Source: Horticoccus luteus
Lineage (GTDB): Bacteria > Verrucomicrobiota > Verrucomicrobiia > Opitutales > Opitutaceae
Direction of reading: 5' to 3'
Assembly: GCF_019464535.1 (NCBI RefSeq)
Contig: NZ_CP080507.1
Coordinates: 2,670,001 to 2,702,000, forward strand
DNA length: 32,000 nt
In this document: positions 18,251-18,542 of the stretch, piece after piece
How positions within the stretch are numbered: the stretch's first letter is position 1
Layout: every line of letters starts with the position of its first letter
Program-made: the position numbers and the translations under genes
The notes under the pieces: model-generated
The model's database searches: none
Told to the model about the DNA's origin: nothing
Seen by the model: only the letters and a program-made list of their open reading frames with translations

Positions 18251-18542
18251 GTCACCCGTCCGGCCACCACCACCCTCAACCCCTTGCCCGTTCCCACCCA
18301 GGTCTGATCCCTTTGGCCACTGCGCTCTAGCGCCAGCGTGAGCCTCACCGCTCAACGCGCTAACCAGTATGCAGGGCCGCCCTTTTCGAGCACCTTGGAT
18401 TCCTCCCTGCACCAGCGCGGCCATTGACGCCGCCACCACGAGTGCGTATGGAAGCCGGACCGTTCGGGAACGCCGCCCCTCCTCCAGAGCCACCAAAAAG
18501 GTGAACCTTTTTCTATATTATTCTCGACACGCCTTCTCATGG
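18251..18542 (+). ncRNA. Candidate seekRNA/bridge-RNA-encoding right end of the IS110/IS1111-type element
   Basis: This is 292 nt of non-coding IS sequence downstream of the transposase, which is the position reported for IS1111-group guide RNAs. It contains CCAGAGCCA (18484-92), identical to the target flank at 18549-57. A weak AAAAAGG-TGAA-CCTTTTT hairpin lies at 18495-18512. No promoter or RNA ends can be defined by eye. Confidence 0.3.

Follow-up and report, generated by a model that had tools for sequence, protein, structure and literature searches.

A candidate seekRNA/bridge-type guide RNA downstream of the transposase of an IS1111-type element inserted in an integron attC site

The non-coding region (NCR) that follows the transposase gene of an IS1111-type insertion sequence very likely encodes a guide RNA of the seekRNA/bridge type, and we put the probability of this reading at about 0.88. 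The RNA would be approximately 140-150 nt long (about 18315-18456 in the window, the 32,000-nucleotide stretch of DNA analysed here), would form two hairpins with internal loops and would be aimed at an attC site. The fold is conserved among relatives, and segments in its two loops covary with the DNA flanking each insertion and with the ends of each element. By analogy with ISEc11/ISKpn4 and IS621, we infer the transcription of this RNA, the position of its ends, its binding by the transposase and the chemistry of strand exchange. The original prediction had already placed a guide RNA programmed for attC downstream of the transposase; this part is upheld by the two-hairpin RNA, the covariation and a real attC, but not by the 9-mer that had been offered as evidence.

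The element and its attC target

Alignment of empty sites and relatives places the element at 17141-18545 (+, 1405 bp), starting with TAGGGATGAGAAGGCG and ending with CGCCTTCTCATGGAAG, both of which are kept in relatives; the ends proposed earlier (17138-18542) were 1-3 nt off. An AG dinucleotide lies directly left of the IS in all relatives (17139-40 in the window) and also forms its last two bases (18544-45), the two copies in this genome and all relatives abutting ...AG^IS...AG^ (carets mark insertion points and joints). Since this AG core is shared by the left flank and the IS right end, there is no target duplication beyond it when compared with empty sites. Each of the 11-bp subterminal inverted repeats (sTIRs) sits 5 nt from its IS end. 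The asymmetry of the non-coding DNA around the transposase, as pointed out in the original prediction, was found again, with 36-39 nt upstream and 292-295 nt downstream, the span depending on how the AG core is assigned. In Pfam the transposase matches PF01548 at 4e-21 and PF02371 at 5.5e-20, and it scores 216.8 bits against a cut-off of 140 for NCBIfam NF033542 ('IS110 family RNA-guided transposase'). It contains GLVPRRDQSG (~17946-17975), which reads as the GL-P----S/TG motif of the IS1111 group, and shares no more than 36% identity with the IS110-family transposases found in a protein search of a plasmid collection. The transposase, the sTIRs with a downstream NCR and the site- and orientation-specific insertion assign the element, on sequence grounds, to the IS1111 group of the IS110 family.

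Table 1. Features of the element, its non-coding region and its target site (window coordinates)
Feature	Position	Strand	Description
Left target half	17131-17140	+	attC R'' box GTTCAAC (17131-37), then CAG; AG is the core
Left subterminal inverted repeat ATGAGAAGGCG	17146-17156	+	Reverse complement of 18530-18540; kept in all relatives
DEDD (RuvC-like) transposase ORF	17177-18250	+	357 aa; PF01548 and PF02371
Hairpin 1, putative target-binding loop	18315-18378	+	Outer stem GGCC-A-CTGC/GCAG-GGCC, inner stem GCGT/ACGC, large internal loop
Target loop 5' strand, CTCTAGCGC plus C	18325-18334	+	Reverse complement of right flank +1 to +9; candidate equivalent of the right target guide
Target loop 3' strand, CTAACCAGTA	18360-18369	+	Same sense as left flank, AG core and first 2 IS nt
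Hairpin 2, putative donor-binding loop	18397-18456	+	Stem GCACC/GAGTGC; apical stem GCGGC/GCCGC (18417-21/18429-33)
Donor loop 5' strand, ATTCCTC	18399-18405	+	Approximate reverse complement of IS left end +1 to +7 (TAGGGAT), 5/7 plus G-U
Donor loop 3' strand, ATGGAAG	18448-18454	+	Identical to IS right end with AG core (18539-18545)
Variable spacer holding 9-mer CCAGAGCCA (18484-92)	18471-18493	+	Unalignable among relatives; outside the conserved RNA
A/T-rich hairpin AAAAAGG-TGAA-CCTTTTT	18494-18511	+	Kept, with GG/CC to T/A changes in closer relatives
-35-like hexamer TCGACA	18524-29	+	Adjoins the right inverted repeat
Right subterminal inverted repeat CGCCTTCTCAT	18530-18540	+	11 bp; partner of the left repeat
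Right part of the interrupted attC	18546-18634	+	Layout as in uninterrupted sites L004-L009 and relatives' flanks

The target is a genuine attC of a chromosomal integron with a bona fide IntI, encoded at 11428-12348 (-) and scoring 384 bits against a curated cut-off of 265, from which the cassette array runs rightwards. The same genome has uninterrupted sites with the sequence ...GTTCAACCAG(T/G)CG..., and the right part of the interrupted site is ordered as spacer ACGCCA, arm GAGCCA+A, variable hairpin, arm TGGCTC, spacer and R' GTTCGGC (18628-34). The IS is inserted 3 nt after the R'' box (AAC-CAG^), between R'' and the L'' arm (ACGCCA-GAGCCA), and points in the direction of the cassette ORFs (sense). 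At each cassette end, R'' is the inverse of a sequence made of G and that cassette's own first six bases (e.g. TTCGGC at 18629 and, at the end of the cassette, GCCGAAC). In other Opitutales genomes, close relatives occupy the same position in similar sites (GCCCAAC-CAG^N-CGCCAGAGCCAAC...GTGGCTC...GTTAGGC), and the relatives' insertion sites each lie a few bases past a stop codon.

A second, 100% identical copy of the IS is present in the same genome (G000:C1:329139-330584); the two copies sit at the same kind of site but at different cassettes, and several other such sites are empty. Behind the second copy, its last 171 nt are repeated perfectly in tandem (L003, G000:C1:328922-329140); this repeat is equivalent to 18375-18545 of the window (donor loop, spacer and right end), and after it comes the normal right flank. 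The joint of this repeat, ...CATGGAAG^GGCCGCC..., falls straight after the GCAG that closes hairpin 1, and the guides do not fit this internal site.

Three integron integrases exceed the curated cut-off in the genome (381-384 bits), namely the one in the window and those at G000 336766-337686 (+) and 2469594-2470514 (-) of the 4.3-Mb Opitutaceae chromosome. Each heads a short cassette array holding an IS91/recombinase unit, and their open frames of 488-492 aa are far longer than classical IntI. The tyrosine recombinase at 16064-17029 was also considered as an integron integrase and was rejected, since its 158 bits fall short of the 265 required. Downstream of the IS, the cassette at 18641-19039 (+) codes for a protein of 132 aa that has a signal of the lipoprotein type (..LISAC..) and no match in Pfam or NCBIfam.

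Fold and guide strands of the non-coding region

The comparison covered about 33 Verrucomicrobiota relatives, with transposase identities of 39-87% and many different insertion sites, which have the IS ends and the two-hairpin NCR in common. Their NCRs were aligned globally with the donor motif as anchor, and the consensus fold was computed with RNAalifold. The alignment contains two conserved hairpins, each with an internal loop, followed by a variable stretch and an A/T hairpin before the right inverted repeat (Table 1). Among 23 sequences, 98.3% of the cells in all stems are paired, against 20-46% with slid partners, compensatory changes occur in 8 pairs, mostly in hairpin 1, and none of 500 shuffles reaches the observed values. 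Helices 1-3 of hairpin 1 are 98.6-100% paired, with compensatory changes in 7 of their 11 pairs; helix 6 of hairpin 2 is 97% paired and nearly invariant, and the apical stem of hairpin 2 covaries by eye (GGGC/GCCC, GAGC/GCTC, GAAGT/ACTTC, GTAGT/ACTAC). RNAalifold also drew a GGATTCC/GGAAGCC pairing (helices 4-5), which carries no compensatory change and probably represents the two donor guides rather than a helix.

The fold sought at the outset in 18251-18542 is borne out by the consensus structure but not by the minimum free energy of the single sequence, the whole 292-nt NCR being not unusually stable (z = -0.89). A covariance-model search, likewise proposed at the outset, matched no Rfam 15 family, neither at the gathering score over the window nor at E<=10 over 16900-18800, where only chance miRNA/snoRNA matches were returned, a negative that says little since Rfam appears to be without any model detecting such RNA. 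The A/T hairpin, built almost wholly of A-T pairs around a TGAA loop and reading AAAAT-TGAA-ATTTT in relatives, has the guide RNA on one side and the right inverted repeat on the other; it may be the 3' end of the RNA or a binding site for a protein (the transposase), and a terminator scan did not call it. A promoter scan found no sigma-70-like promoter inside the integrated IS. At the joined RE-LE junction, distant relatives have TTGACA-17/19 nt-TATTAT/TAAGAT, and the window IS has only a weak TCGACA-16-TAGGGA (7/12); these motifs would be consistent with a junction promoter on the circularised IS.

The segments that follow the target lie in hairpin 1, 100-160 bases upstream of the 9-mer. On the 5' strand of the loop, CTCTAGCGC in the window agrees with the right flank ACGCCAGAG at 6 of the first 8 positions and at 7 of 9 overall (mismatches at +1 and +6), and C18334 faces the G of the AG core. 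The match is complete in L028 (TCCACCTG against CAGGTGGA, 8/8), L032 (TGTGTCGT against ACGACACA, 8/8), L048 (AGCTCCGT against ACGGAGCT, 8/8), L055 (GTAAGGCA against TGCCTTAC, 8/8) and L058 (TATTCGCCG against CGGCGAATA, 9/9); it extends over 7 nt in L049, L050, L051 and L053, and in L023 and L044 the right-flank guide does not match its own right flank. On the 3' strand, CTAACCAGTA in the window agrees with TCAACCAG^TA at 8 of 10 positions, and its sequence marks 18360-18369 as the probable equivalent of the left target guide with a 2-nt extension into the donor. This strand tracks the flank from one element to the next: it is AACGTAGAT in L027 and L029, AACAAGTA in L025 and L028, ATATCCAGT in L040 and CCGCAGAGGT in L049 (10/10), and agrees at 9 of 10 positions, as 10-mers offset by one, in L054 (CACGAAGATA), L058 (GGTCCAGATA) and L059 (CTTTCAGATA). 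At an unrelated target, the distant L058 has GGTCCAGATA against the site GGTCCAG^ATA, and perfect 8-10-mer guide matches are found in distant relatives at unrelated targets.

Two relatives that share a genome (L023 and L038, both in G268) have crossed left-flank guides: the L038 guide CTATCCAG fits the L023 flank (CTATCCAG), and the L023 guide CTAACCAG fits the L038 flank (CGAACCAG) better. The right-flank guide of L023 agrees with its own flank at only 3 of 8 positions. That the guides of some co-resident copies fit each other's flanks hints at RNAs acting in trans between copies, or the guides could have mutated after insertion.

Hairpin 2 relates in the same way to the ends of the element. 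Its 5' strand matches the left end at 7/7 in L049 and at about 5/7 elsewhere, which makes it the weakest of the four segments, with a modest signal. Its 3' strand follows the four variants of the right end, namely ATGGAAG, ATAGAAG (L049, L055), ATGGGAG (L050) and ATAGGAG (L058, L059).

When flanks or ends were permuted among non-redundant elements (20000 permutations), own and permuted matches were 6.2 and 4.2 of 8 for the target loop 5' strand, 8.3 and 5.8 of 10 for the target loop 3' strand, 4.9 and 3.6 of 7 for the donor loop 5' strand and 6.9 and 6.55 of 8 for the donor loop 3' strand (0/20000 each), counts that overstate significance because the relatives are phylogenetically related and not independent. 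With the same reservation, a strict set of one element per target class (13 lineages) gave 7.0 against 4.0 and 8.3 against 5.0 for the 5' and 3' strands of the target loop (0/20000 each), and 4.8 against 3.1 (0/20000) and 7.0 against 6.3 (6/20000) for those of the donor loop. It is difficult to account otherwise for the perfect guide matches that distant lineages show at unrelated sites.

We propose that one strand of the target loop would pair with the attC top strand along its spacer and L'' arm, to the right of where the IS is inserted, while the other, which has the sequence of the R''-proximal left flank and the AG core, would pair with the bottom strand. The donor loop would have the same geometry on the joined IS ends (right end-AG-left end), and the expected circle junction would read ...CATGGAAG^TAGGGATG... 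with a single AG. The DEDD transposase and the RNA would bring the circularised IS together with attC, strands would be exchanged at the AG core, and the outcome would be an IS 3 nt after the R'' box, in cassette direction and without duplication.

Other readings of the same region

A quite different guide had been suggested, made of the 9-mer CCAGAGCCA at 18484-18492 together with CTTGGATTC as the partner for the left flank, the 9-mer pairing with the right flank at 4-12 nt past the end of the IS. The 9-nt identity is real, the 9-mer being present again at 18549-18557, the sense strand of the 3' NCR carries it, and loosely similar strings occur at the same position in L024 and L014. We nevertheless consider this reading highly improbable: (i), the stretch is unalignable among relatives, and L011, L012 and L016 keep the same CCAGAGCC flank without the 9-mer; (ii), it falls outside both covarying hairpins, the expected covariation between guide and flank being found at 18325-18334 and 18360-18369 but not at the 9-mer; (iii), all known guides abut the core, and this match does not; (iv), CTTGGATTC, which lies at 18394-18402 and not around 18407, overlaps a donor-loop strand that is conserved regardless of the flank. 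When the NCR was shuffled with dinucleotides preserved, 121 of 2000 shuffles (about 6%) matched the 20+20 nt of flank exactly over 9 nt or more, in either orientation, so the chance of about one percent given originally was too low. The 9-mer, which falls in a variable spacer, most probably matches the flank by chance. Matching k-mers of the NCR against the flanks returned it together with several 6-mers, and two of these, GACGCC (18426-31) and TGAACC (18502-07), fall in the apex of hairpin 2 and in the A/T hairpin and do not track the flanks of the relatives.

It is also very unlikely that the conserved NCR acts as DNA only, as a set of transposase-binding sites or a copy of the junction used for synapsis, with no RNA involved. 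While no promoter-like site was found inside the integrated IS and the segments do exist as DNA copies of junction sequences, the compensatory changes keep stems in the fold of one strand, each loop holds one complement and one copy as in proven seekRNAs and bridge RNAs (PMC11187229, PMC11208160), and the close protein family is both annotated (NF033542) and shown to be RNA-guided (PMC11187229). Decay of this particular copy, whose RNA would exist but be inactive, with guides that no longer match the site, is somewhat easier to entertain and still improbable. The two mismatches in the right-flank guide, the weak junction promoter (7/12) and position 5 of the left end, a G here but an A in most relatives, would fit such decay, but two identical full copies with an intact 357-aa ORF at two different cassettes argue against it, and three attC sites of the genome that are still empty contain CGCTA, which the guide's UAGCG fits.

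Relation to known elements and to integrons

The candidate RNA resembles the seekRNAs of IS1111 elements (ISEc11, ISPa11, ISKpn4 and ISPst6; Siddiquee et al. 2024, PMC11187229), in which the complement of the top strand lies 5' of that of the bottom strand, an order opposite to that of IS110 types (PMC11187229). The candidate has its guides in the same order as the seekRNAs, and both abut the insertion point; as in those elements, the long NCR downstream of the transposase would encode the RNA, subterminal inverted repeats are present, the target is not duplicated and related elements have been naturally re-programmed to other targets (PMC11187229). Unlike them, the present element belongs to a host of the phylum Verrucomicrobiota, its RNA is predicted from sequence, and a donor-side loop is evident, whereas the seekRNA paper described none (PMC11187229). 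For ISEc11 it has been shown that NCR RNA made in trans from a separate promoter rescues an element whose NCR was deleted. Bridge RNAs have been predicted in the right end of 93% of IS1111 elements, and in IS621 the left guide pairs with the bottom strand and the right guide with the top strand, core included (PMC11208160). Like the IS621 bridge RNA (Durrant et al. 2024, PMC11208160), the candidate has target and donor internal loops that obey the same strand rules, its AG core, read on the opposite strand, is the CT that also forms the core of IS621 (PMC11208160), and its left target guide extends 2 nt into the donor end. In contrast to IS621, the RNA is encoded 3' instead of 5' of the gene, each loop has its guides in reversed order, the element carries long subterminal repeats, and CT can be read in the core only from the strand that is antisense to the transposase.

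An IS1111-attC group (ISPa21, ISPst6, ISKpn4 and ISPa25) is reportedly the subject of work by Tetu & Holmes in 2008 and Post & Hall in 2009. The window IS shares with it a site-specific insertion near the R'' end of integron attC, between R'' and L''. The published elements run antisense to the cassettes (PMC3001079), and their insertion point, ...CTAACAATTCG^TTCAAGCCG (GAA^CG in IS orientation; PMC13604230 table 1), is 6 nt away from R''; the window IS, unlike these, is sense to the cassettes, lies 3 nt from R'', uses another attC class and has a distant transposase. Sister lineages of its clade carry guides for unrelated, non-attC sites. Whether the verrucomicrobial IS1111 clade gained attC targeting independently of the proteobacterial IS1111-attC group, by re-programming of the target-loop strands, is in our view an evenly balanced question.

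The basic biology of these RNAs has already been published, and the gain here is one of breadth rather than of principle. Verrucomicrobiota would hold a diverse set of RNA-guided DEDD recombinases, with about 13 distinct guide-target pairs and four donor-end variants, whose target and donor loops can be read from covariation; this should be useful for the programming rules of IS1111 guides, which are less studied than those of IS621. A second IS1111 lineage, which differs in geometry, targets the attC sites of environmental chromosomal integrons, and this bears on the disruption or freezing of integron arrays. If the proposal is true, the insertion 3 nt from R'', in the orientation opposite to that of the published IS1111-attC group, separates R'' from the rest of attC and would lock the upstream cassette in place.

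The upstream cassette at the IS is a multi-copy unit comprising an IS91-type transposase and a tyrosine recombinase. This 2573-nt unit (14568-17140 in the window) encodes an IS91-family Y2 transposase (14657-16060, -) and an IntI/Xer-like tyrosine recombinase (16064-17029, -), and exists in at least six full or near-full copies (96-98% identical) besides many 5' remnants, also in the G000 arrays at 328-336 kb, 2471-2481 kb, 3717-3721 kb and 3855-3860 kb. It always lies within integron cassette arrays, has cassette-like boundaries (TTGAAC ... GTTCAAC) and may be either a cassette or an IS91-type element targeting R'' boxes. Its end, CTTG-GTTC, consists of what we take to be two IS91 target tetranucleotides.
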